This document shows, piece after piece, positions 3,701-64,000 of a stretch of 64,000 bases of DNA. The notes beneath the pieces are model-generated. The model worked only from the letters and a program-made list of their open reading frames with translations, was not told where the DNA came from and ran no database searches. Made by a program: the position numbers and the translations under genes. The stretch is from Solirubrobacterales bacterium (lineage in GTDB: Bacteria; Actinomycetota; Thermoleophilia; Solirubrobacterales; 70-9): positions 1,110 to 65,109 of the forward strand of contig DATMEP010000096.1 of NCBI GenBank assembly GCA_035556755.1, read 5' to 3'. The first letter of the stretch is position 1; each line of letters begins with the position of its first letter.

Positions 3701-3771
3701 GAAACGACCGCACCTGTCAAGTCCATATCTGTCGCAGAATCGCCGCAGACCGCTCCGGCAAGCGGCGTTCT

Positions 3772-3818
3772 CCGGTCTACGAAACCGAAGGTCACAGGTT
3801 CGAATCCTGTCGGGCGCG
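3772..3818 (+). pseudogene. tRNA-Arg(ACG) 3' fragment (anticodon arm through acceptor 3' strand); att-type island boundary remnant
   Basis: The fragment reads ccggt-ctACGaa-accga / aggtc / acagg-ttcgaat-cctgt / cgggcgc-g. That gives the anticodon arm, variable loop, a perfect T-arm and the acceptor 3' strand. No matching 5' acceptor strand (gcgcccg) or proper D-arm lies upstream. Confidence 0.65.
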
Positions 3819-32354: not shown

Positions 32355-34172
32355 GTGGGGGAAATTTCGATTGGCTCGACCCTTGCCGGCTACCGGCTTG
32401 ACGCGCTGATCGCGCGGGGTGGGATGGGGGTCGTCTACCGGGCGACCCACGTCGCCCTCGAACGGCCGGTGGCGTTGAAGGTGATCGCCCAGCACCTGGC
32501 CGAGAAAGAGGATTTCCGCCAGCGCTTCCTGCGCGAGTCGAGGCTCGCCGCCCGACTCGACCATCCCAGCGTCGTGCCGATCCTCGACGCCCGCGAGGAG
32601 GACGGCGAGCTGATCGTCGCGATGCGGCTGATCGCCGGCGGCGACCTGAAGAAGCGGATCGCGGAACACGGCCCGCTGCCGCCGCAGGAAGCAATCGACC
32701 TGCTCGCCCAGATCGCCGACGCGCTCGACGCCGCCCACGCGGCCGGCGTCGTCCACCGCGACGTCAAGCCCCACAACATCCTGCTCGAAGGCGATCGCGC
32801 CTACCTCACCGATTTCGGGCTCGCCAAAGCGCTCGGCGACTCCGGCGTGCTCAGCGACGCCTCGGTCGTCGGCACGGTCGAATACATGTCGCCGGAGCAG
32901 TGGCGGGGCGCGCGGGTCGGCCCGGCGGCGGACGTCTACTCGCTCGGTTGCGTCCTCTACGAGGCGCTGACCGGGATCGCTCCCTTTGCCCACAGGGCGG
33001 ACGACACCGAGCCGGAGATGCCGGAGGGGCTGGACGCGGTGATCGAGCGCGCCGTCGCCAAGGACCCCGGCGAGCGCTACCCGACCGCCGGCGCCCTGAT
33101 CGAGGCGGCGCGGGCGCACCAGGGGGCGACGCCGGCGGCCACCCGGGTGCTCTCCGAGCGGCCGGAGCAACCGACCCTGCGCCTCGGCGGTGCGCCCGCG
33201 GGTGGCGGGACCCTCGATGGCTTGCGGGACCGGGCCGCGGATCTGCCCTGGCGCTGGCTGCTCCCCGGATTCGCCGCAGTCGCGGTGGCGATCGTCCTCG
33301 CCCTCGTGGTGCTCGGCGGCGACGAGGTCTCGGTCTCGGACCCGATCGACGTCGGCCCGGGCCCGCTGCGACTCGCCGTCGGCGAAGGCGCGGTTTGGGT
33401 CAGCAGCGCGGCCGCCGGGACGCTTTCGCGGATCGACCCGGCGCAGGAGGAAGTCGCCGGCGAGCCGCTTCGCCTCGGCCGCGGCGTCTCCGGCGTCGCC
33501 GTCGGCGAGGGCGCGGTCTGGGTCTCGAGTCCGCGCACCGGCAGCGTGCTGCGGGTCGACCCGGTCGAGCGGGTGACGACGAGGATTCCCGTCGGCGGCC
33601 GGCCCGGCGCGATCGTCGTCGGCGGCGGCCGCGTCTGGGTCGCCGACGAGGCCGGCGGCGGGATCGCCGCGATCAACCCACGCGGCGGGCGGGTCTTCAA
33701 GCGCGGCATCGTGCCCCGCGCCACCCCGCTGCGACTCGCGGTCGGCGCCGGCGCGGTCTGGGTCAGCAGCGCCTCGACCGGCTCGGTCCGCCGCATCGAC
33801 TTCGGCACCGCCACCGCCGACGCGCCGGTCGCGGTCGGGCGCGGCCCGGCCGGGGTCACGGTCGGCGGCGGCCTGGTCTGGGTCGCGAGCAGCCGCTCCG
33901 ACCAGGTCTCGCGCGTCGACCCGGCGACGCGGTCGCTGTTCGGCGAGCCGGTCGAGGTCGGCGAGCGGCCCGGCGGGATCGACGCCGGCACCAGCGTCGT
34001 CTGGGTCGCCAACTCGGCCGAAGGCACGGTCAGCCGGATAGATATCGAGAGCGGCGAGACGGTCGGCGACCCGGTCGAGGTCGGCGCTGGACCGGGCGCG
34101 GTGGTCGTCGGCGAGGAGGCCGTCTGGGTCGCCAACAACGGCGACGGCACGGTCACTCGGATCGAGCCCTGA
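32355..34172 (+). CDS. Ser/Thr protein kinase with TM segment and 7-repeat extracellular beta-propeller
   Basis: 605 aa with GGMGVVY, VALK, HRDVKPHNIL, DFGLA and SPEQ kinase motifs. There is one TM helix (LLPGFAAVAVAIVLALVVL). Seven ~40-aa repeats follow, of the form ..G.GP..(L)AVG.GAVWV(S/A).. Confidence 0.9.
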   Translation: MGEISIGSTLAGYRLDALIARGGMGVVYRATHVALERPVALKVIAQHLAEKEDFRQRFLRESRLAARLDHPSVVPILDAREEDGELIVAMRLIAGGDLKKRIAEHGPLPPQEAIDLLAQIADALDAAHAAGVVHRDVKPHNILLEGDRAYLTDFGLAKALGDSGVLSDASVVGTVEYMSPEQWRGARVGPAADVYSLGCVLYEALTGIAPFAHRADDTEPEMPEGLDAVIERAVAKDPGERYPTAGALIEAARAHQGATPAATRVLSERPEQPTLRLGGAPAGGGTLDGLRDRAADLPWRWLLPGFAAVAVAIVLALVVLGGDEVSVSDPIDVGPGPLRLAVGEGAVWVSSAAAGTLSRIDPAQEEVAGEPLRLGRGVSGVAVGEGAVWVSSPRTGSVLRVDPVERVTTRIPVGGRPGAIVVGGGRVWVADEAGGGIAAINPRGGRVFKRGIVPRATPLRLAVGAGAVWVSSASTGSVRRIDFGTATADAPVAVGRGPAGVTVGGGLVWVASSRSDQVSRVDPATRSLFGEPVEVGERPGGIDAGTSVVWVANSAEGTVSRIDIESGETVGDPVEVGAGPGAVVVGEEAVWVANNGDGTVTRIEP

Positions 34173-49226: not shown

Positions 49227-49670
49227 GTGTTCTCGCGCATCGTGGTAGGGACGGATGGGTCGGAGACCGCCGCCGAGGCGGTCCGGCAGGCTGCCGACCT
49301 GGCCAAGCTCTCCGGCGCCCAGCTCAGCATCGTCAGCGCCTACGAGCCCGTCTCCAAACGCCGCACCGAGGGCGAGCAGCTGGACGCCCCGGCGGACGTC
49401 CAGCACCAGCTCGGCCCCCGCGAGGACGTCAACCTCGTGCTCGAGGCCGCCGCCGCGGCGGCGAAGAAGGAGGGCCTGGAGGTCCAGACCCACCCGGTCG
49501 AGGGCAACCCCGCCGACGCGATCCTCACCGTCGCCGAGGACACCAACGCCGACCTGATCGTCGTCGGCAACAAAGGGATGACCGGGGCGCGCCGCTTCTT
49601 GCTCGGCAGCGTCCCCAACAACGTCTCCCACCACGCTCCCTGCAGCGTCCTCGTAGTCCGCACGACCTAG
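49227..49670 (+). CDS. Universal stress protein (UspA family)
   Basis: 147 aa with ..IVVGTDGS.., ..VVGNKGMTG..LGSV..HHAPCSVLVV. Confidence 0.9.
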   Translation: MFSRIVVGTDGSETAAEAVRQAADLAKLSGAQLSIVSAYEPVSKRRTEGEQLDAPADVQHQLGPREDVNLVLEAAAAAAKKEGLEVQTHPVEGNPADAILTVAEDTNADLIVVGNKGMTGARRFLLGSVPNNVSHHAPCSVLVVRTT

Positions 49671-49713
49671 CGGCTTACCCGGAGGCCGCGTCCGCGGCCC
49701 CCGGGGTGCATCC

Positions 49714-50334
49714 TTATCCTGTTTCTTCGTAGTCGAGTTCGACTGGAGTTCCGTTGCTTGTCTCCAGTGTGAATTTGCCCTCGATCGCGCCGACCGGGGG
49801 GCAGCCCGGCCCAGTCCCGGTGAGGGCGGACTGTGTGATCTCGAATTCATCGACCCCCCATCCGCGCCCTTCTAGGTGAGCGGTGCCCGCGAAATGACAT
49901 GTCTGGAGCGGCGTCGTGTGATTCACATCGCTGGGGTGGTATATGTGGTCTATCAATGTCACGCCAACGTTTCCTGTGCCCCATGTATTGATTGTCAGGT
50001 TTTGGACGACTGTCAAATCTGTGATTGTCACTCGGAAACCGTTCTCTGCAACTGTGCAGTGTTCGGTTGTTCCTTCTCCCAGTGGGTTGAGGACGACATG
50101 GCCTCCCGGGCCGTTCGTGACAACTTCGAAGTGAAGCATCACTTTTGTGCAAACAATCGTGCCTTGGCTCGTTGTTATCTTTAGATCGGTGCTTGTAGCT
50201 GTGACGCCTGCGCCAGCTGCGAGTTTCTGTGTGTCCTCTGTCAGTGTGACTTCGGCCTGAGCAGCCGCCGGCGCCGTGACGGCGATTACCGTTAGCGCTA
50301 TGCTGCCGAATAGCAGAATTCTCTTGATGCTCAT
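49714..50334 (-). CDS. Secreted 4-Cys beta-rich protein, divergent member (paralog 1) of the island family
   Basis: 206 aa from the ATG at 50334. The signal peptide is MSIKRILLFGSIALTVIAVTAPAAAQA. It shares VTITDLTV and four Cys with the other paralogs and lies in an A+T-richer patch. Confidence 0.7.
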   Translation of the reverse strand: MSIKRILLFGSIALTVIAVTAPAAAQAEVTLTEDTQKLAAGAGVTATSTDLKITTSQGTIVCTKVMLHFEVVTNGPGGHVVLNPLGEGTTEHCTVAENGFRVTITDLTVVQNLTINTWGTGNVGVTLIDHIYHPSDVNHTTPLQTCHFAGTAHLEGRGWGVDEFEITQSALTGTGPGCPPVGAIEGKFTLETSNGTPVELDYEETG

Positions 50335-50493
50335 CTCTTTCCCTTCATGGTCGTAGCTCATCCCCCATTCGGGGGATGAGCGATCCATAACGGGGAAGCT
50401 CTAGTTAGTCAATAAATATTGAGCTTAAGACACGCAAATTTGTCTACAGCGACAAGTCGGGTGGCCGCGGCTGCGCCGCACTGACGACCTCGG

Positions 50494-50847
50494 CTATCTC
50501 TCGCCCTCAGGCACCCTGAAGATCTGCTTCAGCTGCTCGTCGTGGTGACCGAGCTTTGCTCCAGTCTCTCGCTCAAGCTCTTCGAGCCGTTCTTCAATCG
50601 CAGAGTATGAAGCTGCAATGCGGCGAAGCTCGACGAATACCCGCATGATCTCTACCAGCGGACGGTTCCGACGACCCCCGTGCCCTCCACTTGAAATCAC
50701 AAATTGTGATTTCAAGTCGCTGAACTCTTGCGCGGACAGCTGGAACATGAAGCCGTCGGGAAAGCGCTTGATGTTGCGTTTTACTTGCAGAACCAGGACC
50801 CTGGTCTCGACGCCGTAAAGGACTGCGAGATCCTCATCGAGCATCAC
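50494..50847 (-). pseudogene. ORF6N-domain (phage/KilA-N-related) gene remnant
   Basis: ..VMLDEDLAVLYGVETRVL.QVKRNIKRFPDGFMFQL..LKSQFV matches the ORF6N pattern as I remember it. The frame is open upstream (..EKRILVVRERQ) with no start codon. About 25 aa appear to be missing internally after GGRRN. Confidence 0.55.
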
Positions 50848-51040
50848 TTGGCGCTCACGAACGACCAGGATCCTCTTCTCGGTTGCTGGAGTTGCGATTA
50901 GCCCTGCGAGACCTTATTTCCTGCCGAGTCGACCATCGACGCAGGGCTGCAGATGCGTCGGAAGCTATTGTCTGCAGTCGGGATCGCAATTTGCGAGAAG
51001 TGAGGATAATTCGCCAACGAAGCCCTTTTGCTGAGCGCTT

Positions 51041-52953: not shown

Positions 52954-52975
52954 ACGAATACCCTTTGGCCAACCG

Positions 52976-53065
52976 GAGAGGTGTCCGAGTGGCTTAAGGA
53001 GCGCGACTGGAAATCGCGTGGGCGGGGTTAACCCGCCTCGTGGGTTCGAATCCCACCCTCTCCGC
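52976..53065 (+). tRNA. tRNA-Ser (anticodon GGA)
   Basis: The 90-nt class II cloverleaf has acceptor ggagagg/cctctcc. The anticodon arm is cgcga-ctGGAaa-tcgcg, the long variable arm is gggcggggttaacccgcctc and the T-arm is gtggg-ttcgaat-cccac. CCA is not encoded. Confidence 0.95.
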
Positions 53066-53271
53066 TCCTAGCGCTTCACCGTTCGATGAAAGATACGGCG
53101 GTCCTCAAACTACATAAAGTATTAATAAAATTCTCTTGATTATTTCCCCTAGGATGGTGGCGGAGATGGCGTCGATTTGCAAGGGAAGGCGCTGGCATAG
53201 GACTCGATACGCACAAGGGGAATCCGGAGTTAGGCAACGGGCCGGCTCGCACGAGTCGGTCGCGGGTCCCG

Positions 53272-54285
53272 GTGCTGGCAGGCAGCCGAGCGCTTTCGAT
53301 CTTTGCCTATGCGCTGAACGCGCGAACCCTGCGGGCCCACGCCGATGGCGCGCTGCGAGCGAGTGACCTAGAAGAGACAATCGGCTGGGCGCCGCAGACG
53401 AGTCTCCGGGCTGCCGTGGCCAACCTCTGCGAGCTGGGCGTCCTCGCCAAGCGGGATCCCAGCAGCGAGTCAAGGTGCCTTACTACCGAGATCACCTCGG
53501 CCGGCCGTGACCTCCTCACGGTCGCCGATCGGCTCGAGTATTGGCTGCTGCACGCCCCGAAGGGCCCGATCCAGCTCGACGGCGCCGCCGCTGCAGGCGC
53601 GATCAGGGCGCTGATCGGCGGCTGGGACTCGACTATCGTCAGAGTGCTCGCGGAGCGGCCTCTCACGCTGACCGAGCTCAACTCCGAAATCCCGGACATA
53701 AGCTATCCGGCGCTTGAGCGTCGTCTGTCCAAGCTGCGCTCCACGAATCTCGTCACCGCAATCGAGAGCACGGGCAAGGGCAAGCCCTATGCCGTGAGCG
53801 ACTGGCTCTGCCACGCGATTGCCCCACTTGCCGTCGCGGGACGGTGGGAGCGAAGCTATATGGCCGACAATGTCGCCCCTATCTCCCATGTCGAGGTCGA
53901 GGCTTCGTTCCTGCTCACCCTTCGGTTGGTGGAACTTTCCCACAGCACTACCGGAGCCTGCGCGCTTGCCGTGCTCACGTCAGCAGGAGATGCCGGAGGG
54001 GAGGAGAGGCAGGTGGCCGGCGTCACCCTTGGGGTGCGGGAGGGAGAGATTGTCTCCTGCAGCTCCGATACCGCCTCCGACCCACCCACGTGGGCGCTGG
54101 GCACCTCGGACGCTTGGCTCGAAGCTGTGGTCGACGGCCGTCTCGATGCTCTTCGAGTTCGAGGCGCCAAACCGGACCTACCGATGAACATCGTCCAAGA
54201 CATCCACGATCTCCTCTTCCCGCCGTTAAGTACCGCAAATTTGCGCGTGTTAGACACCGACTTACAGCGATTTGCAGGCAGATAA
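53272..54285 (+). CDS. Tandem winged-helix (HxlR-like) transcriptional regulator with a C-terminal SCP2-like region
   Basis: 337 aa. The second wHTH is WDSTIVRVLAERPLTLTELNSEIPDISYPALERRLSKLRSTNLV. It is the first gene of the A+T-richer island. Confidence 0.6.
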   Translation: MLAGSRALSIFAYALNARTLRAHADGALRASDLEETIGWAPQTSLRAAVANLCELGVLAKRDPSSESRCLTTEITSAGRDLLTVADRLEYWLLHAPKGPIQLDGAAAAGAIRALIGGWDSTIVRVLAERPLTLTELNSEIPDISYPALERRLSKLRSTNLVTAIESTGKGKPYAVSDWLCHAIAPLAVAGRWERSYMADNVAPISHVEVEASFLLTLRLVELSHSTTGACALAVLTSAGDAGGEERQVAGVTLGVREGEIVSCSSDTASDPPTWALGTSDAWLEAVVDGRLDALRVRGAKPDLPMNIVQDIHDLLFPPLSTANLRVLDTDLQRFAGR

Positions 54286-54428
54286 CCCGAGATCCATGAA
54301 CCCCGCCGGTTTCTCGTGTCGCCTTCCGCAAAGTTTTTCTTGACTGTTCTCTAGTTCTTCCGTTATTGATCGCCATGTCCCCGGCCATCCGGGGATAGGG
54401 AAACCAATTCAATAGGGAAGGGAATTCG

Positions 54429-55007
54429 ATGAACCTCAAGCGCATCATGCTGGTCGCCAGCATGGCACTCGCCTTGGTCGCCGTTGCCGCTCCGGCATCC
54501 GCATCGGCGAACTGGCTGAAACACCATAAACCGATCACCCAAAACGAGCATATTGAAGTCGAGGGTGTACTGGGTTTCGCGATCCCGGGGGTTGCTTCTT
54601 ATAGGTGCGAAATAGATATTACAGCCACACTATTCGCCGGAACCACAACAGGTGAGATTGACACATTTGACATCACAACAAATAAATGCGTAGGTGAAGG
54701 TGGGTTGCAAGCCTGCACCTTGAAAGGTGACCACACCTTTGATCTCCCATGGGAGATGCATGTCGAAACAAATGAAGCCGGCGAACCTGACATAACCATT
54801 ACAGACGTCACAATCACAAATACATATAACGACAATACACCTAACTGCCCGGTACATGACAGCACTGTTATCTTCCCGGCAGTGACAGCAACGCCCGATA
54901 ATCCGACCACAATGAGTACCCTAACCGTTTCGGGAACGGGTGCCGGTGGTATCCAGGCATTCGGTACGGCTTCGGTTACACCCAAAGCTACATTCGGAAT
55001 CGAATAG
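54429..55007 (+). CDS. Secreted 4-Cys beta-rich protein, island family paralog 2
   Basis: 192 aa with signal peptide MNLKRIMLVASMALALVAVAAPASASA and motifs YRCE, TTNKCVG, LPWEMHV, ITITDVTIT and SVTPKATFGIE. Confidence 0.8.
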   Translation: MNLKRIMLVASMALALVAVAAPASASANWLKHHKPITQNEHIEVEGVLGFAIPGVASYRCEIDITATLFAGTTTGEIDTFDITTNKCVGEGGLQACTLKGDHTFDLPWEMHVETNEAGEPDITITDVTITNTYNDNTPNCPVHDSTVIFPAVTATPDNPTTMSTLTVSGTGAGGIQAFGTASVTPKATFGIE

Positions 55008-55049
55008 CCGTTTGAGTGCACCTCACAGCGCTGCTGCGGGGTGATCTAA

Positions 55050-55096
55050 GTGGGGCCGCGTAGCCCAAAACTACGCGGCCCACTTTAGAAAATTTT
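55050..55096 (+). terminator. Intrinsic terminator after paralog 2
   Basis: gtggggccgcgtag / ctacgcggcccac form a 13-bp stem with one bulge. The loop is cccaaaa and tttagaaaatttt follows. Confidence 0.65.
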
Positions 55097-55126
55097 CGAG
55101 TTCCTTAACAAGCTTACGTGTAAATG

Positions 55127-55156
55127 TTGACAAGACCTCAGTTGTACCTCTATGGT
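55127..55156 (+). promoter_or_regulatory. Candidate sigma70-type promoter for the 775/1304-aa operon
   Basis: TTGACA (55127..55132), an 18-nt spacer, then TATGGT (55151..55156), about 85 nt upstream of the GTG at 55242. Confidence 0.35.
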
Positions 55157-55241
55157 GCCGACTGGCTCGATTGTGTCGGGCTAGTCGATTTGGGCAATAG
55201 GGAGAGCCCGGCGTGGGGCCGGGCGCGAGGGGGGGGACGAA

Positions 55242-57569
55242 GTGAGACAGCTTTCGATGTCCTGGCAGGGTAGCCGGGTCAAAGCAGGCGATACATTGTG
55301 GTTCGCATGCCTGGTATCCGCCTTTTTCTCAGCTGTATTTTTGGCGGTTTTTACTTCTTCTGCTTCTGCCGCTCCGGTTCCAGGCGATCCCTGCTCAAAT
55401 GGGGATATTCGGCTAGAACAGAACGTTGCCTTTCTTCCGGACTGCATGGCTATTGAGCTTGTCAGTCCGTCACGCAAGTTCAACCAGCGTGCCAACAATC
55501 CCCACGTTTCAGCCAACGGGCAACGCATTCGCTTTCTCTCGCCTGCTGGCTTGGCCGAAACGCCGGGTTTATTAGATCCATTTGGCGACCCATACGTTGC
55601 CACTCGTGGGCCATCCGGATGGGAAACCTTACCTACCTCTCCACCAGCCGGTTTCTTCTACGGATGGCGGAAAAACGCGGAGCCTCTCAGTTTCACGCCG
55701 GATTTCTCCAGTTGGTTTCAAATTGCAGCCACTCTGTCTCAGCGACAAATGGGTATAGCTCAAGTCTTTCAAGGGAGGCTAGATGGATCATTCTCACTAT
55801 TATTTCCGGCGTTGGTTCCGTTGGGCGGTGGTGTACCCCTAACCGTCGAAGCGAGTGATCTCCAGGGTGCGTCTGAAGATCACTCCCATCTCTACTTTCG
55901 CCCGGGGCCCAAGGCCGCTGGTGGTGCTGATCGTCTGACTTCCTATCTATCGGGCGATCCGAGTCCATCCGGACCGGGCGCCGACTACAATGTCTATGCT
56001 GTGGCTTTCACGCCTTCGGACGTGCCTTTCATTGTTCTTCTTTCGCGTGATGGAGAGGGGAAAGTATGGGGTGGTAATTGTGGCGCTCGTCTTGGCGGCA
56101 TAGGGGAGTTTGTGGGAGTCGGTCCGTTCCCTGCACCTAACGGAAATAGAAATCAACACGCCATTTCTACGGACGGTACTCGCGTGTACTTCTCTGCCCG
56201 TGCGGCTCAACCCGAATCCGGGCCCTGCACTGAAGCGAATAAACTACGTATTCTCAAGCGAATTGAGGCTCAAGACGGGCCATGGATCAGTCGCTTGCTT
56301 AAAGAGCCCTCCGGGGATTGCGATCGAGTAGCACCACCTTGTAGTGCAGCCGATGGTGATGACCTTTACCAAGGGGCGTCCATGGACGGCACTAAGGTTT
56401 ATTTCACTACCAATCGTACGGTTGCTGACTCCGATCTCGATGACAGCGCCTCCCAATGCAGTCTTACGATCGCTCAGCCCGGCTGCGACTTGTATCTTTA
56501 CGACTCCACGCTGCCCCCCGGTCAGCGGCTGATCCAGGTTTCGGCCGGTGAGACTGTCCCTGGGTTGCACGAAGCTGGTAAAGAAGCAAAGGTATTCAAT
56601 TCGGTCGCGGCAATTTCCGGAGACGGTTCTCACGTCTATTTCGCTGCCGAAAATGTTCTTACCTCAGATAAGAATCCCGAAGACGGCGAAGCGCAACCAG
56701 GCCAGCCGAACCTATACGTCTGGGATTCTGCGACTAAATCCCTTGCTTTCATCGGTGCCTTGGCGTCAGGTGATCAAGGTGCTCTCTGGGGTGGGGAAGG
56801 CACCTTCAAGAACAATGCCTATCCGGTGCCTGCAGTGGATGAGAATCTCGGTCAAATCGGGGGAGATGGGCATATCCTTCTTTTTCTCTCAAAAGCTCCC
56901 CTCACGGCAGATGACGGGGACGGCCTTAGTCGTGACCTATTCCGTTACGACGCAGAGTCTGAGCAGTTGGAGCGGATTTCGAAGGCGGTACCGGGAGGAA
57001 ACGACAACGGCGCGTTCGACGTGGCCTCGCGTGGCAATCCTTTTGTCCCTGGTACCGACTTTGCTGAGGACGGTCGATGGGCGAGTGAGGATGGTGAGAC
57101 CGTCGTTTTTTCAACTAACGAGACTCTCGTCCCAGACGGTATTGGTGGCGACGGTAACTCTTACCTCTGGCGGAGGGGGCAGTTGGTCCGCCTGCCGGGT
57201 GGCACTCCTGTTCTCTCCCATGACGGTTCTACGGCTGCCTTTACGACTCCAGCCCAGCTTCTGCCCGAGGATGGGGATTCAATCGGCGATGTTTACGCAG
57301 CTAGAGTGGAAGGGGGTTTTCGAAAACCGCCCCCTATACCGGTCTGCATACCCAACGGGAACGAGGGGTGTCAAGGTTCCTCTGATGCTGTCCCCAGCGT
57401 TCCCAGCGCTCAGGGGCTCGGGCTTTTAAGTCAGGGCAATGTAAAGCTGGACCCGGTGCGTAACTGCCCTCGCGGCAAGCGGAGGGTTCAGCGCAAAGGG
57501 AAAACTCGCTGCGTTAAGCGGCCAAATCACGAGAAACGAACCAGCCGCAAGCAGGGGGGCCAGCGATGA
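55242..57569 (+). CDS. Secreted seven-repeat (PD40/TolB-like propeller suspected) protein with a Cys + poly-basic C-terminal tail
   Basis: 775 aa with a signal peptide (..FLAVFTSSASA). There are seven spaced (S/G)xDG..(V/I/L).F units: SANGQRIRF, STDGTRVYF, SMDGTKVYF, SGDGSHVYF, GGDGHILLF, SEDGETVVF, SHDGSTAAF. The tail reads NCPRGKRRVQRKGKTRCVKRPNHEKRTSRKQGGQR. Confidence 0.75.
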   Translation: MRQLSMSWQGSRVKAGDTLWFACLVSAFFSAVFLAVFTSSASAAPVPGDPCSNGDIRLEQNVAFLPDCMAIELVSPSRKFNQRANNPHVSANGQRIRFLSPAGLAETPGLLDPFGDPYVATRGPSGWETLPTSPPAGFFYGWRKNAEPLSFTPDFSSWFQIAATLSQRQMGIAQVFQGRLDGSFSLLFPALVPLGGGVPLTVEASDLQGASEDHSHLYFRPGPKAAGGADRLTSYLSGDPSPSGPGADYNVYAVAFTPSDVPFIVLLSRDGEGKVWGGNCGARLGGIGEFVGVGPFPAPNGNRNQHAISTDGTRVYFSARAAQPESGPCTEANKLRILKRIEAQDGPWISRLLKEPSGDCDRVAPPCSAADGDDLYQGASMDGTKVYFTTNRTVADSDLDDSASQCSLTIAQPGCDLYLYDSTLPPGQRLIQVSAGETVPGLHEAGKEAKVFNSVAAISGDGSHVYFAAENVLTSDKNPEDGEAQPGQPNLYVWDSATKSLAFIGALASGDQGALWGGEGTFKNNAYPVPAVDENLGQIGGDGHILLFLSKAPLTADDGDGLSRDLFRYDAESEQLERISKAVPGGNDNGAFDVASRGNPFVPGTDFAEDGRWASEDGETVVFSTNETLVPDGIGGDGNSYLWRRGQLVRLPGGTPVLSHDGSTAAFTTPAQLLPEDGDSIGDVYAARVEGGFRKPPPIPVCIPNGNEGCQGSSDAVPSVPSAQGLGLLSQGNVKLDPVRNCPRGKRRVQRKGKTRCVKRPNHEKRTSRKQGGQR

Positions 57570-60500
57570 TTGAGATCTGCTACCGCAGCACTACCTTCTA
57601 CTACTACAACACTCAAGGCGTGATCCATGTTTTCTGGCTCGCTGGCTTCTTAACGGGACTTATCGCCGGCATCATTGGACTGAGCGTTAACCCGATGAAC
57701 GCCGTAGCGGTGCCCACCCTGGGTGCCTATATAGAAAAAGATGAGCTATCGGTTAGTAGAAGCGACGAAAGAATCAATTATACGGTGACCGTTGCTAATG
57801 TTGCCAGAGTTGTATCTGGGGCGGAACTCACCTGTAATCCCACTGCATGGGGAGGCTCTAGTCCGACGTTTAGTTTTCAATGGTTACGCAACGGGGTTGC
57901 TATTCCAGGAGCAGAAGCTTCCACCTATGGGCTACAGGCGGCAGACAACGGGCAAGTTATTCAATGTAGGGTAACTGCAACGAACACGGTTGTGGATATA
58001 GGCGGTGGTTTTGCCGGCTCTACCCGTGTAGCAAGTGGCTTTATCGTTGATCCCGTACCTTCCGCGGCACCTCCAATGACGGCCGGGACCCCCACCCTAA
58101 CGCTTAGTGTTGGCGGTTCACTAAATGTGGGAGGTGACCCGTCGGCTACGGCTCCACCAACGACTCTGACCTGTGCCACTGGACTCTGGCGCGGCGAACC
58201 GACGTTTAACTATCAGTGGTACCGCAATGGAATTCCGCTTTCTGGTAATGGTGCCGCTACGAACACCTACGCCGTCCAAGCCGCTGATGTTGCTACCAGT
58301 GCCACTTTTCAGTGCGCTGTGAAGGCAGCTAATGCCAGCGGCGCGGCGACGAAAGTATCTGCGAACCTTGCCACTAACCCGGCGCCCTCTCCTGTGGCTC
58401 CTAGCAATAACAACACGTTGTCCGTCTCAAGCATGAGCGAAACCAGCACCCCAATCAGCGGTGTTGTCAATGTGGAGGTTCATCTACCGGAGAGTGAAAG
58501 TACGTTCGCGTACAAAATCTTCAATGGAACGAATGAAGAAATTGCGCCTAGTGGCTGGACCTGTTCCTCCCAGCCCCCATCTGGTGGCCTTCAGGCAAAA
58601 GTTTCCTGCAATCGCGCCAATGCGTTAAATCCCGGTGCTCTCTATCCTCCAATCGCTATCGGCACCGCACTTGGAGACGATTTACCCAATGTCGCGATTG
58701 CTAGCGCTACAGTCTCTGGTGGCGGTGCGCCCCTAGCTGCGAGTGCGTTTAATGAATTTACTTTCACCCCACCGAGACTATTCGACATCACTGCGTTTGA
58801 AACCAAAGTTCCTAATGAAGGAGGGGTGGTTGAAGAGACTCAAGCTGGTGGCCACCCACTTGCCGCCAGGGCTACCTTTTCGTTCGCCAAAAAAAGGGTG
58901 TTGATCCCCCCTTCGGTACTTCCTGGTGATAGATATGCCCCGATGGGCCGGGCCAGGCTTATTGCCACCGACACTCCGCGTGGATTCGTTGGCAACGCTT
59001 TAGCTGTGCCTGAGCTATGTTCCTCGATGGAGGTGGTGCTGGCACAGACTTGTCCATCCGGCAGTGTGGTCGGCGGAGTGACCATTGACGGATTCGGTAC
59101 CAAGATCGAAAATATGCCAATTTACGCGATCGAGCCTGAATTTGGCGTTCCCGCTCAGTTTGCCTTTCCCCACAAACTGTCAGAGACGGTCTACACCTTT
59201 ACCCCACGCCTCCGGCCTGAGGATGGTTATGCAATAACGCTCGAATCTGCACCAGCGCTTGTTAATCCAGCTCTCCGCGATGTACAAGCCACGATTTGCG
59301 GATTTGGAGCGACCACGGGTGGGCCATTCAATGAATTCGTCAGCTGCAAGAAAGCGACGCAGATAGGAGCTAATCCCGTCCCCTTGGTCACGCTGCCGAC
59401 TCGATGCGCAGCAGAGCCACCTACCACGGTCCTTCGCGTGGACGCTTGGGAGAATCCTGGCGAGTTTGCAGTCAAAGAGTTTGAGGCGCCGGCTGTAACT
59501 GGTTGTGATGCGGTCGAATTCGAACCTGAGATCGAGTTAACTCCGACTTCCGTCCAGGCGGACTCCCCGACGGGATTGGATGTCTCGCTGACCATGCCCA
59601 CCGACGGTTTGGAGAGCCCTACTGGTATTTCCCAGGCAAATTTGAAGCGGGCCACCGTGACTCTGCCGGCCGGAATGGCGGTTAATGCGGCCGCTGGCCA
59701 TGGGCTCGCTGCCTGCACGGCCACCCAGGTCAAGATGAAGACCAATAACCCGATCGAGTGTCCGGATGGTTCGAAGATCGGGACGATCGCGATCGTCACG
59801 CCGCTGATTCAGGAAAAACTGACCGGATCGGTGTATATCGCGAAGCAAAATGACAATCCGTTCGACGAGATGATCGGCCTCTATATGGTCTTTGAGTCTG
59901 AGAAAGACGGGATCCTGATCAAGATTGCGGGCAAAGTGATCCCGGACCCGAAGACCGGTCAACTTGTCATCACCTTCGATGACAACCCGGAAGCGCCGTT
60001 TTCTAGCGTCGACCTTCATTTTGCCCAGGGACCACGTTCGCCCTTGCTCAATCCCCGTCGCTGCGGTGCCTATGAGATCAAAGCGGAGCTGACGCCCTGG
60101 AACGCTGCGGATCCCAATAACCCGACCGCAGAGGAGACGGTCGTCCAGACCTCTACCTTTGAGGTGACGGAGGGCCCGAATGGCGGTTCTTGTCCCGGTG
60201 GTGGCCTCGACCCGAAGCTGACCACCGGTTCGTCTAACCCGGTCGCTGGGGGCCATGGTTCGTTCCTAATGACCCTCAAGCGCGATGACGGTACCCAGCG
60301 CTTCACCGCTCTCGCCGTGACCGTTCCTACGGGTCTCACCGCAGACCTCAGAGGTATTCCGTACTGCCCAGACGCAGTGCTGGCGTCGATCCCCACGGCT
60401 GAGGAAACCGGCCAGGCTGAGATCGACAATCCATCCTGCCCGGCGGCCAGTCAGATCGGCACTTCCTCGGCAGGCGCCGGAGCTGGCCCCGATCCGTTCT

Positions 60501-61480
60501 ACGTCAATACCGGCAAGGCCTACCTCGCCGGTCCCTACAAAGGTGCGCCGCTGAGTCTGGCGCTGGTTGTCCCGGCGGTGGCTGGGCCGCTCGACCTCGG
60601 CAACGTGGTCGTGCGCACCGCCCTGTACATCAACCCGAAAACGGCCCAGATCACGGCCGTCTCGGACCCGATCCCGACCATCCTCCATGGCATCTTGCTC
60701 GACGTCAGGGACATTCGGGTGGCGATCGACCGGCCTAACTTCATCGTCAATCCAACTAATTGCGAACCGCTCTCGGCTGGCGCGACGGTGAAGGGAGATG
60801 AGGGCGCCACCGCCAATGTCTCCAGCCCGTTCCAAGTTGGAAATTGTGCCGGCCTTGGGTTTAAGCCAAAGGTTTCGCTGAGGCTTAAAGGCGGTACCAG
60901 GCGAGGCGACAATCCGGCTCTTACGGCTGTCCTGACGCCGCGGGCGGGTGACGCGAACGTTGCCAGGGCGGCTGTGACGCTGCCTCGGTCCGCCTTCCTG
61001 GACCAGGCGCACATAAGGACGGTCTGCACCCGGGTCCAGTTCGCGGCGGACCAGTGCCCGAAAGCGGCCATTTATGGCCGGGCCGTGGCGGAGACCCCGC
61101 TGCTCGACCAACCGCTCGCGGGCCCCGTCTACCTGCGCTCGTCCAGCAACCAACTGCCGGACCTGGTCGCCGACCTGAGGGGTCCTGCCCACCAGCCGAT
61201 CCAGGTCGAGGCGGCGTTCCGCACCGATTCGATCAGAGGTGGGATCAGGAGCACCCTCGACCTCGCCCCGGATGCCCCGGTGACCAAGTTCACGCTGAAG
61301 ATGCAGGGCGGCAAAAAGGGCCTGGTCGTCAACAGCCAGAACCTCTGCGCCAACGTCAACCGGGCCAACGTGCGGCTCAACGCACAGAATGGCCGCCGGT
61401 TCAACTCACGGCCAAAGGTCGTGGCGACGAACTGCGGCAAAGGGCGCTCGGGGAAACGCAAAGGCAAAAGGGCGCGCTAG
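57566..61480 (+). CDS. Giant N-terminally anchored protein with two Ig-like repeats, a ~1000-aa uncharacterised region and a Cys + poly-basic tail
   Basis: 1304 aa. The ATG overlaps the upstream stop (ATGA). There is an N-terminal TM (VFWLAGFLTGLIAGIIGLSV). Two C...W..(S/E)PTF.(F/Y)QW.RNG...G....TY..QAAD.....QC.V.A.N repeats follow. The tail reads NCGKGRSGKRKGKRAR. Confidence 0.8.
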   Translation: MIEICYRSTTFYYYNTQGVIHVFWLAGFLTGLIAGIIGLSVNPMNAVAVPTLGAYIEKDELSVSRSDERINYTVTVANVARVVSGAELTCNPTAWGGSSPTFSFQWLRNGVAIPGAEASTYGLQAADNGQVIQCRVTATNTVVDIGGGFAGSTRVASGFIVDPVPSAAPPMTAGTPTLTLSVGGSLNVGGDPSATAPPTTLTCATGLWRGEPTFNYQWYRNGIPLSGNGAATNTYAVQAADVATSATFQCAVKAANASGAATKVSANLATNPAPSPVAPSNNNTLSVSSMSETSTPISGVVNVEVHLPESESTFAYKIFNGTNEEIAPSGWTCSSQPPSGGLQAKVSCNRANALNPGALYPPIAIGTALGDDLPNVAIASATVSGGGAPLAASAFNEFTFTPPRLFDITAFETKVPNEGGVVEETQAGGHPLAARATFSFAKKRVLIPPSVLPGDRYAPMGRARLIATDTPRGFVGNALAVPELCSSMEVVLAQTCPSGSVVGGVTIDGFGTKIENMPIYAIEPEFGVPAQFAFPHKLSETVYTFTPRLRPEDGYAITLESAPALVNPALRDVQATICGFGATTGGPFNEFVSCKKATQIGANPVPLVTLPTRCAAEPPTTVLRVDAWENPGEFAVKEFEAPAVTGCDAVEFEPEIELTPTSVQADSPTGLDVSLTMPTDGLESPTGISQANLKRATVTLPAGMAVNAAAGHGLAACTATQVKMKTNNPIECPDGSKIGTIAIVTPLIQEKLTGSVYIAKQNDNPFDEMIGLYMVFESEKDGILIKIAGKVIPDPKTGQLVITFDDNPEAPFSSVDLHFAQGPRSPLLNPRRCGAYEIKAELTPWNAADPNNPTAEETVVQTSTFEVTEGPNGGSCPGGGLDPKLTTGSSNPVAGGHGSFLMTLKRDDGTQRFTALAVTVPTGLTADLRGIPYCPDAVLASIPTAEETGQAEIDNPSCPAASQIGTSSAGAGAGPDPFYVNTGKAYLAGPYKGAPLSLALVVPAVAGPLDLGNVVVRTALYINPKTAQITAVSDPIPTILHGILLDVRDIRVAIDRPNFIVNPTNCEPLSAGATVKGDEGATANVSSPFQVGNCAGLGFKPKVSLRLKGGTRRGDNPALTAVLTPRAGDANVARAAVTLPRSAFLDQAHIRTVCTRVQFAADQCPKAAIYGRAVAETPLLDQPLAGPVYLRSSSNQLPDLVADLRGPAHQPIQVEAAFRTDSIRGGIRSTLDLAPDAPVTKFTLKMQGGKKGLVVNSQNLCANVNRANVRLNAQNGRRFNSRPKVVATNCGKGRSGKRKGKRAR

Positions 61481-61539
61481 CGCCCGCAAAACTCGCGCGG
61501 CACGACCGCACAGCGGTAGCCCTGGCGCCGCGTTGAGAA

Positions 61540-61577
61540 GGCTCCGGCCGGACTTCCTTGCCCGTCCGGCCGGAGCC
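61540..61577 (+). terminator. Hairpin terminator after the 1304-aa gene
   Basis: ggctccggccgga / tccggccggagcc form a 13-bp perfect stem followed by gtgcttt (a weak T tract). Confidence 0.5.
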
Positions 61578-61710
61578 GTGCTTTAGAAGCCCGTCCGGCG
61601 GTGCATCTGCGCAGATTTGCATGGGTAAATTTGAGCATTTGACCCCGATCCTCTATGCATCGGAGTGCCCTCGCTGGGGGCATCCGACACAAGAAGGAAA
61701 GGGAGAGAAG

Positions 61711-62280
61711 ATGGGCATCAAGAGGATCATTCTGGTCGCAAGCATGGCGTTTGCTGCGATCGCAGTCGCGGGCCCGGCGTCCGCCTCGGCGCTCGAATGG
61801 ACAAAGCACAGCGCGCCGCTCGAAGCCAACGAGAAAATCGGGCTCACAGGCACCCTGGAACTGGTGATCCCGACGGGAGCGATGGACTGCGAGGTCCATG
61901 CAGAAGCCAAACTCACAGCGAATACCTCGACAGGTGAGGTGGAAAAAATCGAAATTACAACAAATACCTGTAAAGGCACAGGCAGCCTTACGAATTGTCA
62001 AGTCGTGAACGACACGGTGGCGGCTCTGCCGTGGACCATGCATATCACGGCTGCTCTGGAAATCACCATCACAGACATGACAATTACTCTCAACAACAAA
62101 GCGGGGACCGGCTGTCCCATTCCGGCGACCGTATTTCACATCCCGACCGTGACCGCGAAACCGGATTTCACCGAAGTTATAAGTAGCTTGGAATTGTCCG
62201 GGGCGGGTACAGGCGGCACCGGCATCACCATGAACGGATCACTGTCCGTGACTCCCAAAGCCACATACGGGGTCTTCTAG
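61711..62280 (+). CDS. Secreted 4-Cys beta-rich protein, island family paralog 3
   Basis: 189 aa from the ATG at 61711 with signal peptide MGIKRIILVASMAFAAIAVAGPASASA and motifs DCE, TTNTCKG, LPWTMHI, ITITDMTIT and SVTPKATYGVF. Confidence 0.8.
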   Translation: MGIKRIILVASMAFAAIAVAGPASASALEWTKHSAPLEANEKIGLTGTLELVIPTGAMDCEVHAEAKLTANTSTGEVEKIEITTNTCKGTGSLTNCQVVNDTVAALPWTMHITAALEITITDMTITLNNKAGTGCPIPATVFHIPTVTAKPDFTEVISSLELSGAGTGGTGITMNGSLSVTPKATYGVF

Positions 62281-62292
62281 TTCTCTGACGTC

Positions 62293-62330
62293 AAAAAGGC
62301 GCCGCCCTCGAATGGGGTGGCGCCTATTTT
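62293..62330. terminator. Bidirectional intrinsic terminator between convergent paralogs 3 and 4
   Basis: aaaaa-aggcgccgccc-tcgaat-ggggtggcgcct-atttt gives a ~11-bp stem with an A-run upstream and a T-run downstream. Confidence 0.65.
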
Positions 62331-62351
62331 GCTGTCGGCGTGGACCGTCGG

Positions 62352-62921
62352 TCAGTTCACGCCGTATGTGCCACTCGGCGTGATTTCCTGTGTGCCTGAT
62401 GCGATGGCGCCGTTTTCAGCAACGCCGGAGATGGATACGTCGCTAATTTCTTCCGGGTTGTCTGGCTGGTTTTCGACTTTTTTGAACGAGAGTTTGATTT
62501 CCTCGATTTCACATTCGCCGGGTTTGACTTCGAATGTGTAGTCGATTGTTGTATCTGTGATGACAAATCCGCCGCCCATTACGTGGGCAGGCCAGGGCAG
62601 ATTTGTGATTTTCTCTTCTTTCAGTTTGCATTTGGCCAGGAGGCCGCCGCCTTTGCATTTGTCTGTTGTGAATTCGTATTTGGTGACCGTGGTGACGCCG
62701 GCGTCGCTGATTGTGTAAATCAGGTGCGCTTCGCATTCATATGAGGCGATGCCTGGGATCTGGAAGCTGGCGGGCCCTGTGGCTTTGATCTCGACGTGTC
62801 CTTCGAGAGGATTGCCTTCGTGGGTCCATTCATCGGTTGCGGAGGCCGATGCCGGGATGGCCAGTGCGCTAAATGCCAGCAGGGCAAGCACGAACCGTTG
62901 AGCATTCTTGATGCCAATCAT
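62352..62921 (-). CDS. Secreted 4-Cys beta-rich protein, island family paralog 4
   Basis: 189 aa with a signal peptide ..FVLALLAFSALAIPASASA and motifs YECE, TTDKCKG, LPWPAHV, VITDTTID and ITPSGTYGVN. Confidence 0.8.
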   Translation of the reverse strand: MIGIKNAQRFVLALLAFSALAIPASASATDEWTHEGNPLEGHVEIKATGPASFQIPGIASYECEAHLIYTISDAGVTTVTKYEFTTDKCKGGGLLAKCKLKEEKITNLPWPAHVMGGGFVITDTTIDYTFEVKPGECEIEEIKLSFKKVENQPDNPEEISDVSISGVAENGAIASGTQEITPSGTYGVN

Positions 62922-63039
62922 GATGTTCCTTTCTCGTTTGTTCGAGTCTCCGTTTGGCGGAGACCATTAGACGAGAAAAGTTTAGTTTTCAGTTGTCAAC
63001 CCACACAACTAAGAAAGCGCATATTTGCGCGGGTTCAGC

Positions 63040-64000
63040 TCAGCCCACGGGCTCGCGCTCGGGCGGCAGCTCGCCGCCGCGCTCGGTGCCGGCGATCAGC
63101 TCGTCGGGGGCTTTCTGCTTCGGGATGAAGCCGGACTTCATCCCGAAGTAGACGGCCTGCGGGTGGTGGGCGACGATCGCGACCGTCGACTGCTCGGGCA
63201 TCACTGCGTAGCCGTCGGAGAGGGTCATGCCGATCTCTTCGAGGTCGAGGAGGCGCCAGACTTTTTCGTGCTCGGACTGGTCGGGACAGGCGGGGTAGCC
63301 CCATGAGTAGCGGCGGCCCTGGTCGAGCTCGATGCCGAGCGCGCGGCGGGCGTCGGAGTGCAGCCACTCGGCCAGGCCCTCGGCCGCCTGCACGCCGAGT
63401 CCGTGGACGAAGAGCTGTTCGGCGAACTCGCCTTCGCGCTCCAGGCGCTCGATCAGCTCGGTCACCTCGGGGCCGACGGTGACGCCCTGCAGGGCAACCA
63501 CGTCGCGTTCGCCCGAGTCGAGCGGACGGAAGAAGTCGGCGAGGCAGATGCGGTCGTGCTTGGGCTGGCGCGGAAAGACGAGCCGCTCCAGCTCGCGCTC
63601 GGGATCCTCGGGGTCGAAAACGATGAGCTCGTTGCCCTCCGCGTTGCAGGGGAAGTAACCGAGTCGCGCCCGCGGATTGAGGTAGTCCTGCTCGCGCCAC
63701 ATCCGCTCCAGCTTCGGCGCGAAGCCCTCGTCGGTGCCGTTGCCCTCGACCAGTTCGCGCCAGGCCTCGCCCTTGACGCCTTTGCCGCCCCAGTGCAGCT
63801 TGAAGAGGACGTGGCGGTCCAGATAAGGGAAGACGTCGTCGAGGTCGAGGTCGACCTCGCGCACGCCGAGGTACGGCGGCTCGGGGATCGGGTTGTCGGT
63901 GACGGCCGCGGAGCGCACGCTGGCGTCGGTGGTCGGCGGGCCGTCGTCGACCACGACCGGCTTCTCGCGCAGCTGCTTAGCCTCGCCGTGGATCCGTTCG
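63040..64000 (-). CDS. metH: Methionine synthase (cobalamin-dependent), C-terminal AdoMet-activation domain; 5' part lies outside the window
   Basis: The frame is open to the window edge. ..RRYSWGYPACPDQSEH.. and ..GMTLSDGYAVMPEQSTVAIVAHHPQAVYF are typical of the MetH reactivation domain. Confidence 0.8.
   Translation of the reverse strand, partial: ERIHGEAKQLREKPVVVDDGPPTTDASVRSAAVTDNPIPEPPYLGVREVDLDLDDVFPYLDRHVLFKLHWGGKGVKGEAWRELVEGNGTDEGFAPKLERMWREQDYLNPRARLGYFPCNAEGNELIVFDPEDPERELERLVFPRQPKHDRICLADFFRPLDSGERDVVALQGVTVGPEVTELIERLEREGEFAEQLFVHGLGVQAAEGLAEWLHSDARRALGIELDQGRRYSWGYPACPDQSEHEKVWRLLDLEEIGMTLSDGYAVMPEQSTVAIVAHHPQAVYFGMKSGFIPKQKAPDELIAGTERGGELPPEREPVG

Follow-up and report, generated by a model that had tools for sequence, protein, structure and literature searches.

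We analyzed a stretch of 64,000 nucleotides (nt), here called the window (positions 1,110 to 65,109 of contig DATMEP010000096.1, assembly GCA_035556755.1), from a metagenome-assembled genome (MAG) of a Solirubrobacterales bacterium. An A+T-richer block of the window (53066-63035), situated between a tRNA-Ser(GGA) gene and the methionine synthase gene metH, encodes a pair of large proteins that are predicted to be secreted: a beta-propeller protein of 775 amino acids (aa), here called the propeller, and a protein of 1304 aa, the giant. We hold with great confidence that the block belongs to a cassette family that is endemic to the order, and is not the unique cargo of an island. A preliminary description of this DNA, made from the letters alone, had read the block as a one-off system of this latter kind. 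The pair comprises the following elements:

55242..57569, plus strand: propeller, a secreted PD40/TolB-like beta-propeller of 775 aa with a signal peptide
57462-57566, plus strand: tail of the propeller, Cys-bracketed and polybasic, NCPRGKRRVQRKGKTRCVKRPNHEKRTSRKQGGQR
57566..61480, plus strand: giant, 1304 aa, annotated as 'hypothetical protein VNP96_07915' on the 65.9-kb contig
Giant aa 77-140 and aa 198-257: Ig_2-like domains in the variable N-terminal region (Pfam Ig_2)
58775-61441 (giant aa 404-1292): four homologous beta-sandwich modules of ~200-245 aa each (hhalign)
61430-61477, plus strand: tail of the giant, Cys plus Lys/Arg

Homologues of the giant fell into at least 290 protein clusters, all named hypothetical, and a scan of one genome per GTDB species returned at least 598 matching stretches. 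The best 80 of these at least 598 matches all came from Solirubrobacterales, Conexibacteraceae or Thermoleophilia MAGs, often several per genome, and the 2.64-Mb chromosome OY970236.1 carries at least 4 copies of the giant. The MAG of the window itself contains a paralog, VNP96_03080 (giant 49% identical), whose cassette has the native GC content of 0.66-0.73. A propeller homologue was present in 76 of 81 giant loci. The TGA stop codon of the propeller overlapped the start of the giant by 4 nt in 67 of 75 pairs, and most of the others abut; in the window the overlap is the ATGA at 57566-57569, so that the coupled pair recognized in the preliminary description is both present and kept among relatives. 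Since the pair is recurrent and overlapping, it represents a conserved translationally coupled unit and not a one-off. The window cassette has what distinguishes the family, namely the coupled pair, the four-module core and Cys plus polybasic tails on both proteins. The number of genomic matches, the several copies per 2.5-Mb genome and the native-GC copy in the same MAG overturn the view of a one-off system. As far as sampled, homology searches show the cassette family to be multi-copy and confined to Solirubrobacterales/Thermoleophilia.

The preliminary description had found no family to name for these proteins. In agreement, Pfam, NCBIfam, PADLOC, PHROGs, PDB sequences and Foldseek gave no match to any family of adhesins, S-layer proteins, enzymes, defence proteins or phage proteins that has been characterised, and no confident homology to a characterised family emerged when structure searches with models of the giant core and of the small secreted protein sp1 (below) were included. 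Literature searches did not turn up a description of the propeller-giant cassette. Clustering of neighbouring genes, which was dominated by antisense shadow open reading frames (ORFs), revealed no conserved enzyme, sortase or transporter partner, and accessory genes were variable. One accessory family of ~233 aa lies directly downstream of giants in 13 of the related loci, which carry the prefix L (L055:13876-14577, L001:15054-15767 and 11 others). Its members have a signal or transmembrane N-terminus and 'GAVTxxKI' repeats, and the family is absent from the window. At L001, a collagen-repeat protein is encoded ahead of the cassette.

The propeller scored marginally with the Pfam PD40 model (21.0 bits at a cut-off of 20.9). 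A regular-expression search detected 7 repeats of the form S-x-D-G-x-x-V-x-F, and the signal peptide ends in ASA|AP, bearing out the earlier view of a secreted seven-repeat protein of 775 aa. Its homologues comprise at least 383 clusters, some of them annotated as PD40, NHL or 'Tol biopolymer transport system component', and carry PF07676 or PF01436. We therefore regard the 775-aa protein, by its repeats and its annotated homologues, as a predicted member of the PD40/TolB beta-propeller superfamily. It shares with TolB and other PD40 proteins the ~7 PD40-type repeats. Unlike these proteins, it is encoded in a block without Tol-Pal partners (no TolQ/R/A or Pal genes in the block by Pfam and NCBIfam) in an order of the Actinomycetota, a monoderm lineage; moreover, it ends in a Cys-bracketed polybasic tail, and its gene forms a translationally coupled pair with the gene of a 1300-aa beta-sandwich protein.

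The four modules of the giant core (aa 404-1292) were related to one another with hhalign probabilities of 83-99%. An AlphaFold2 (AF2) model of aa 285-1304 was almost all beta, with a mean predicted local distance difference test score (pLDDT) of 89.3, and many Cys residues are invariant across the giant family. Sequence identity to homologues rises from 25% to 58% between the N- and C-terminal ends of the core, and the number of N-terminal Ig domains as well as protein length vary among giants. No Pfam or NCBIfam model exists for the core, and PDB sequence searches with the giant, the propeller, sp1 and the regulator encoded in the block (below) gave only matches to Ig domains or noise. Foldseek aligned the core with complement C3/C5, integrin alpha legs, alpha2-macroglobulin and Saf pilus polymers in the PDB (E 4e-8 to 1e-5) and with a viral DUF11 protein in BFVD (E 2e-11, template modeling score (TM) 0.12). 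The TM values of ~0.1 throughout are those of generic beta-sandwich arrays, so the resemblance is limited to a string of beta-sandwiches. The giant thus resembles integrin alpha ectodomains, C3/C5, the MG domains of alpha2-macroglobulin, Saf pili and DUF11 proteins in being a long string of beta-sandwiches, and differs from them in having mutually homologous modules of ~200-245 aa. It also lacks a sequence match to MG domains (Pfam) or to DUF11 (PF01345; none at E <= 0.1, Pfam) and the thioester motif C[GLIVA]EQ (CxEQ). As modelled, the likeness is one of architecture and not of membership.

The giant begins with a hydrophobic segment followed by AVA|VP, and its homologues show canonical AxA|AP signal peptides. 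Outside the N-terminus, no transmembrane-like segment was found in the propeller or the giant; the only other apolar stretch of the giant, aa 998-1016, lies within the confidently modelled beta core. Because this stretch is buried in the core model and the N-terminus resembles a signal peptide, membrane anchoring of the giant is doubtful and probably does not occur. The preliminary description, which had called the giant anchored, is not supported here, given that the sole possible anchor segment is the N-terminal one with its homologue-like cleavage site. It was right, in turn, about sortase signals: the sole LPxTG-like string in the giant is internal (aa 1139), neither large protein has a C-terminal LPXTG or a C-terminal hydrophobic segment, and the block encodes no sortase domain (Pfam).

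Both large proteins do end in a conserved Cys plus polybasic tail, contrary to the preliminary description, which had seen no sorting tail. Giants terminate in N-x-C-(G/K)-K followed by 10-25 Lys/Arg-rich residues, and propellers in C-P-K-G-K-R-K-V-x-R-K-G-K-x-R-C-V followed by a basic run; the final residues are often ...RRA(A/G)K or ...QGGxK. The fraction of Lys plus Arg reaches 0.35-0.40 in the last 30 aa, compared to 0.06 in the body, and the isoelectric point (pI) is ~12 for the tail versus 4.5-5.1 for the body. A Cys within the last 45 aa was present in 105 of 120 giants and 115 of 120 propellers. The Cys-basic-Cys tail also ends unrelated secreted proteins (L027:18820-20031, 403 aa; L046:5751-7466, 571 aa), and BLAST similarity of L027:18820-20031 to propellers is confined to the tail. 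Note that by eye the 403-aa protein at L027 contains three repeats resembling a carboxypeptidase-regulatory domain.

Isolated tails had no match in Pfam or NCBIfam, and SLH, CWB2, GW/SH3, LysM and choline-binding domains were detected neither in the full proteins nor in the isolated tails (E up to 10). As a portable C-terminal module on Sec substrates, the tail looks like a retention or sorting signal, and we consider it a candidate for such a function. The arrangement would be similar to that of non-covalently wall-bound Gram-positive proteins (GW/InlB, CWB2, SLH, LysM) in combining Sec export with retention on anionic polymers via a C-terminal module. It differs from these proteins in that their domains are missing and the module is a short, low-complexity Lys/Arg tail after 1-2 conserved Cys. 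A lysine-rich C-terminal tail that binds sulfated glycans occurs in mycobacterial HBHA.

The block also encodes three small proteins with signal peptides, and a fourth member of this family was found elsewhere in the window:

54429..55007, plus strand: sp1, 192 aa, signal peptide and a ~165-aa all-beta domain with 4 Cys
61711..62280, plus strand: sp2 (VNP96_07920), 189 aa, secreted paralog, 48% identical to sp1 (profile E 6e-60)
62352..62921, minus strand: sp3 (VNP96_07925), 189 aa, secreted paralog, 35% identical to sp1 (profile E 3e-53)
49714..50388, minus strand: sp4, divergent fourth member with a likely start at 50334 (MSIKRI...; profile E 4.4e-15)
50494-50847, minus strand: ORF6N/anti-repressor fragment of 117 aa beside sp4 (Pfam ORF6N 1e-19; PADLOC PDC-S05, a candidate defence family, 1e-27)

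The set of three paralogs in the preliminary description (sp1-sp3, 35-48% identical) stands, and has to be extended by sp4, which is outside the block. The gene for sp4 has a GC content at third codon positions (GC3) of 0.60, and promoter, 5' untranslated region and signal-peptide DNA are common to sp4, sp1 and sp2. Note that sp4 is held by a separate low-GC islet of ~1.5 kb (window 49500-51000, GC 0.53-0.56) between the Usp and S8 peptidase genes.

The small-protein domain has no model in Pfam or NCBIfam. A profile of it collected 881 clusters at 50% identity among 1.84 billion representatives. The domain occurs in single, double and triple copies and also forms the extreme C-terminus of large secreted S8 proteases, trypsin proteases and NHL proteins; among the C-termini inspected, nearly all members end in ...P-(A/S)-G-x-Y-G-(V/I/M)-x. 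The AF2 model of sp1 (pLDDT 87.4, >90 in the mature part) consists of long antiparallel strands. Foldseek with this model against the PDB gave no match at E <= 1e-3; the weak matches were meander beta-barrels (LolA, lipocalins, DynF, the NHBA C-domain and the OmpA barrel, the latter with the best TM of 0.42/0.55). The confident sp1 model with its long antiparallel strands is therefore similar to calycin-like meander barrels (lipocalins, LolA, NHBA C-domain, 8-stranded OmpA/Ail) at the level of weak matches, none of them at E <= 1e-3, and differs from these barrels in that its strands are rich in Thr and Asp and not lipid-facing. On the basis of the model, we regard the small-protein domain as a modular, extracellular, beta-barrel-like domain, previously unnamed.

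Small-protein genes were found beside 15 of 81 giant loci, as singles, doubles or arrays and typically ~1 kb downstream. In every genome examined they were A+T-richer than the host locus (delta GC -0.076 +/- 0.031, GC3 mean 0.68, n=26). Examples are L009:12399-16035, L110:12364-13414, L089:10988-11701 and 20 others, at which the neighbouring giants have a host-like GC3 (mean 0.84). Since low GC is a family-wide trait of the small-protein genes, it is for them not evidence of recent import. A 1356-aa ORF at L014:18958-23028, which by eye contains NHL-type repeats and Fn3-like domains, carries one copy of the small-protein domain at aa 593-766, followed by an Rhs-like motif, ...LEFTRVYNS..., a hint that the domain may be connected with polymorphic toxins.

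We next consider the block as a whole, which is delimited as follows:

52975..53065, plus strand: tRNA-Ser(GGA), left border of the A+T-richer block (ARAGORN)
63040..63954, minus strand: 3' end of metH (B12-dependent methionine synthase, activation domain), right border (Pfam Met_synt_B12 6e-33)

The Rfam tRNA model matched the tRNA-Ser at 52975-53064 with 55.9 bits, and the block starts at 53066, one base past the gene. In 500-nt windows, GC falls from 0.72-0.73 to 0.61 at 53000, stays at 0.49-0.67 until ~62750 and is again 0.69 by 63000. GC3 of the genes in the block ranges from 0.52 to 0.77 (hxlR 0.75, sp1 0.52, propeller 0.53, giant 0.63, sp2 0.67, sp3 0.62), compared to 0.91-0.95 for flanking genes (tadA 0.91, metH 0.92, S8 peptidase 0.91, Usp 0.95, with an MBL-fold protein within this range). 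By Pfam, the left-flank gene encodes a tadA-type deaminase and the right-flank gene the MetH activation domain. GC and GC3 thus agree with the earlier delimitation of an A+T-richer block that begins directly 3' of tRNA-Ser and ends at the metH stop at 63040, and the six ORFs described earlier were all found in place. An independent Logan assembly of run SRR7976076 matched 53039-61045 at 100% identity, including the junction of tRNA and block, which is therefore not specific to one assembly. Note that this Logan contig (L162) ends within the tRNA-Ser gene and within the more conserved 3' part of the giant, both of them positions at which an assembly graph might be broken up by repeats or paralogs. 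Elsewhere in the window, ARAGORN reported a 69-nt tRNA-Arg(acg) at 3750-3818, where the Rfam tRNA model remains below its gathering score; GC is lower (0.61-0.65) in the first 4 kb and has a local peak of 0.78, the window maximum, at 33001-34000.

The composition of the block is mosaic, not uniform. Along its length, GC3 is 0.70-0.83 in hxlR, between block and host values, and 0.45-0.61 in the propeller. In the giant it climbs steadily, from 0.40-0.58 over aa 1-600 to 0.68-0.73 over aa 650-950 and 0.78-0.88 over aa 950-1304. A recombination breakpoint or uneven amelioration would be candidate causes of this gradient. We considered mis-assembly with the paralog of the same MAG as a source of the mosaic in the giant and rejected it, the nucleotide identity being only 68%. 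Low GC as a family trait of the giant and propeller was likewise rejected: among 143 homologues of the two genes in other genomes, the GC of the gene follows that of its locus (difference 0.00 +/- 0.03, minimum -0.054; GC3 0.66-0.93). For the two window alleles the difference is -0.115 and -0.14. By this deviation from the 143 homologues, the window alleles of the giant and propeller are genuine outliers and probably imported.

To compare the locus among relatives, we used a sample of 80 metagenome loci with the metH 3' flank, in which the MetH C-terminus is 84-91% identical to that of the window. In about 17 of the 80, metH is followed directly by tRNA-Gln and a cassette is missing; in ~7, a cassette runs convergent to metH, like that of the window, with giants only 38-59% identical; and ~7 show the regulator alone. 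Cassettes adjoin metH at L007, L008, L012, L110, L113, L120, L128, L154, L157 and L161; at the genome loci L007, L008 and L012, metH is paired with a cassette without tRNA-Ser. An empty site with tadA, tRNA-Ser and metH contiguous was not found among the 80 metagenome and 81 genome loci. The block is thus not conserved core DNA, in line with the preliminary description, as the metH 3' flank varies among relatives. We consider the locus a variable hot-spot that exchanges diverged alleles of the endemic cassette, most simply by homologous recombination. Where present, the tRNA-Gln(ttg) of relatives lies on either strand, 9-130 nt past the metH stop (L082, L085-L087, L090-L094, L100, L101, L105, L109, L116, L129). 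In the window, the cassette takes this place, and a tRNA-Gln is missing from the 10 kb around the metH stop.

The block further contains a regulator gene and candidate signals for transcription:

53272..54285, plus strand: hxlR, regulator of 337 aa with an HxlR-type winged helix, extended at both termini (Pfam)
54234..54245, no strand assigned: palindrome CGCAAATTTGCG, candidate operator upstream of sp1 (motif search)
61610-61621 (sp2), 63018-63029 (sp3) and 50433-50444 (sp4): matches to CGCAAATTTGCG with <=2 mismatches
55046..55088, plus strand: terminator-like hairpin 3' of sp1 (inverted repeat)
55127-55156: sigma-70-like promoter (TTGACA, 18 nt, TATGGT) ahead of the propeller-giant operon (promoter scan)
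61540..61577, plus strand: terminator-like GC-rich hairpin 3' of the giant gene, GGCTCCGGCCGGAC...GTCCGGCCGGAGCC then GTGCTTT
62297..62325, no strand assigned: strong bidirectional terminator hairpin between convergent sp2 and sp3, with a 12-bp stem (9 GC pairs) and a T-rich tail

The Pfam HxlR model matched residues 117-165 of the regulator with 34.3 bits (cut-off 20.8). One HxlR-type winged helix-turn-helix (wHTH) was detected. The preliminary description had proposed a tandem winged-helix regulator; the winged helix is confirmed, and its tandem nature is unproven because the two halves do not resemble each other significantly (E 0.13). Homologues with 33-47% identity adjoin cassettes or metH at L007, L012, L042, L095, L111, L147, L148, L151, L158 and L159. 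Regulators of the HxlR/YodB type are roughly 110-130 aa long. The window protein resembles these MarR-type regulators (DUF24) in its HxlR-type wHTH and has a weak match to YodB; it differs in its length of 337 aa with extra N- and C-terminal regions, compared to 110 aa for the matched YodB chain.

With <=2 mismatches allowed, CGCAAATTTGCG has exactly 4 matches in the 64-kb window, one upstream of each small-protein gene, ~100 nt from the ATG for sp2-sp4 and ~190 nt for sp1. The background in 2.7 Mb of related loci was 39 matches, or 0.0065 per 450 nt. As a family-wide motif the palindrome was rejected, since it lies upstream of only 1 of 27 small-protein genes in other genomes; it is specific to the lineage of the window. 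A shared operator in this lineage is plausible, and the pattern may also partly reflect duplicated upstream DNA. That the HxlR-like protein binds the palindrome is speculation. The three hairpins coincide with the terminators placed earlier at 55050, 61540 and 62293. Together with the promoter-like site, they would define the transcription units [hxlR][sp1][propeller-giant][sp2][sp3].

Based on these observations, we propose a tentative model of a Sec-exported surface complex that is held by polycationic tails and encoded at a recombining, variable locus; we put the probability of the model as a whole at roughly 45%. Both large proteins would be exported by Sec and acquire disulfides, and propeller and giant would assemble at roughly equal molarity. 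The Cys plus Lys/Arg tails (pI ~12, on bodies of pI ~5) would hold both proteins non-covalently on the anionic cell envelope. With the tails at the envelope, the variable N-terminal parts would face outward and form an adhesive or protective surface structure, an orientation that fits the rise in identity toward the C-terminus of the core. The small proteins would act as ligand-binding or docking modules. The window copy would occupy a variable hot-spot between tRNA-Ser and metH as a recombinant allele, in which sp1, the propeller and the 5' two-thirds of the giant gene would derive from a lower-GC relative, with no integrase-mediated insertion at the tRNA.

Several points weigh against this model. 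Surface location, complex formation and anchoring by the tail, as read from sequence, are without a characterised homologue, and the signal-peptide cleavage sites were judged by eye. The polybasic tails might just as well be processing sites, or bind DNA, minerals or other cells. A 2018 review of surface display in monoderms (PMC5817068) names positive charge only for the n-domain of signal peptides and the LPXTG tail, and a keyword search for further charge terms found none in it; it therefore offers no precedent class for tails such as those described here. Moreover, the family-wide A+T richness of the small-protein genes is explained by no part of the model, and the GC3 gradient within the giant gene has only candidate explanations. 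Finally, a donor lineage of matching sequence did not emerge; among the related loci compared, nucleotide identity peaked at 71%.

The reading of the preliminary description, a classical island in which a mobile element targeted tRNA-Ser(GGA), bringing in an adhesin or toxin system unique to this genome, has in its favour that the block starts directly 3' of the tRNA with a strongly deviant composition, and that cassettes elsewhere lie near tRNAs or integrases (L024, L002). At L024 (4972-14545 and 19221-20315), tRNA-Ser(cga) and tRNA-Thr(ggt) enclose the cassette, and a pair of tadA and tRNA-Ser(gga) resembling that of the window is situated ~4 kb upstream; an integrase-like ORF follows ~6 kb beyond the cassette, and the propeller is apparently split into two ORFs. 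At L002, an integrase and IS110 are directly downstream of the cassette. In the window, however, no integrase, transposase, recombinase or phage structural gene was detected in the block (Pfam, NCBIfam and PHROGs; ORFs >=180 aa, 53066-63035), and a second copy of the tRNA-Ser 3' end was not found in the window by repeat search or by pattern search with <=3 mismatches. Thus, what survives of the earlier reading is the foreign composition beside a tRNA and the lack of mobility and phage genes, which it had itself remarked upon; a mark of site-specific integration is missing, and relatives have cassettes at the metH flank without tRNA-Ser. The block is similar to tRNA-linked genomic islands in its position directly 3' of a tRNA, its deviant composition and its presence or absence among relatives. 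It differs from them in lacking an integrase and flanking direct repeats, in being internally mosaic instead of one compositional block, and in its cargo, an order-endemic cassette of which a genome carries several copies and which is also found at the metH flank of genomes without the tRNA. A classical tRNA-targeted island is therefore distinctly improbable.

Alternatively, the complex might be released from the cell, for capture of nutrients or substrates or as an enzyme scaffold, with the giant modules as docking sites, the small-protein domain as a dockerin- or lectin-like element and the tails binding soil polyanions or extracellular DNA. The small-protein domain at the termini of secreted S8 and trypsin proteases and NHL proteins would fit such a role, as would its 1, 2 or 3 tandem copies, a pattern familiar from lectins and carbohydrate-binding modules, the four homologous modules of the giant and the weak fold matches of sp1 to ligand-binding meander barrels (LolA, lipocalin, DynF, NHBA). 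These fold matches are all below significance, however, no binding partner or enzyme gene is consistently part of the cassette, with accessories variable, and the small-protein gene is near only 15 of 81 giant loci; we consider release unlikely, although far from negligible. An S-layer-like, self-assembling envelope layer of propeller-giant heteromers, with divergent copies varying the surface against phages or predators, would account for several divergent copies per small genome, for variable N-termini on conserved C-terminal cores and for alleles that differ strongly between relatives at a conserved locus, and acidic bodies with basic tails could mediate lattice or wall contacts. Such a layer appears improbable in view of the absence of SLH, CWB2 or any other S-layer anchoring domain (Pfam, NCBIfam), and the term 'S-layer' is absent from the papers dealing with Thermoleophilia that were listed in a search on Thermoleophilia/Solirubrobacterales cell envelopes. 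A module for polymorphic-toxin or contact-dependent competition, or a receptor-binding module derived from phage, is very improbable. It would draw on the Rhs-like motif in the L014 ORF with the small-protein domain, on the Ig domains of the giant, which match phage Hoc-like decoration domains (PDB sequence search, PHROGs), and on the variability of the cassette with its signs of horizontal transfer. YD/Rhs repeats, a toxin domain and an immunity-like gene are nevertheless absent from the window proteins (Pfam, NCBIfam), PADLOC and PHROGs yielded no defence or phage family for the block proteins beyond these generic Hoc-like Ig domains, the viral fold library gave only generic beta-sandwich arrays with TM ~0.1, and all the proteins have Sec signal peptides.

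An extension of the surface-complex model is more speculative, and we regard it as rather unlikely. The motif CPKGKRKVxRKGKxRCV plus Lys/Arg run might be a new, portable and sortase-independent envelope-retention signal of Thermoleophilia, and the 165-aa domain a new C-terminal docking or ligand-binding beta-barrel that attaches free small proteins, proteases and NHL proteins to the four-module giant, in a surface scaffold of uncultured soil Actinomycetota akin to cohesin-dockerin.

In conclusion, none of the folds (a propeller, beta-sandwich arrays and a beta-barrel) is unusual in itself, and uncultured lineages commonly encode large secreted families that are uncharacterised. Judged by its sequences, the cassette would be of a known kind, that of secreted surface-protein cassettes in variable loci, and it forms a family that is well delimited. 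Very few Solirubrobacterales have been cultivated, and nothing that we found describes how their cell surface is built. The order is reported from soil samples, for example in PMC6544083. Three large families are without a Pfam or NCBIfam core model, namely the giant (at least 598 genomic matches), the propeller (at least 383 clusters) and the small-protein domain (881 clusters), and neither these core families nor the tail are covered by Pfam, NCBIfam, PADLOC, PHROGs or a solved structure. With several cassette copies per 2.5-Mb genome, they account for an appreciable part of small genomes. If the tail is indeed a retention signal, it would represent a new class of protein display in monoderms and provide a simple sequence rule to predict the surface proteome of the lineage. 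The metH-flank locus, where alleles have diverged strongly and one was probably imported, offers a natural test case for surface variation driven by recombination in soil bacteria.

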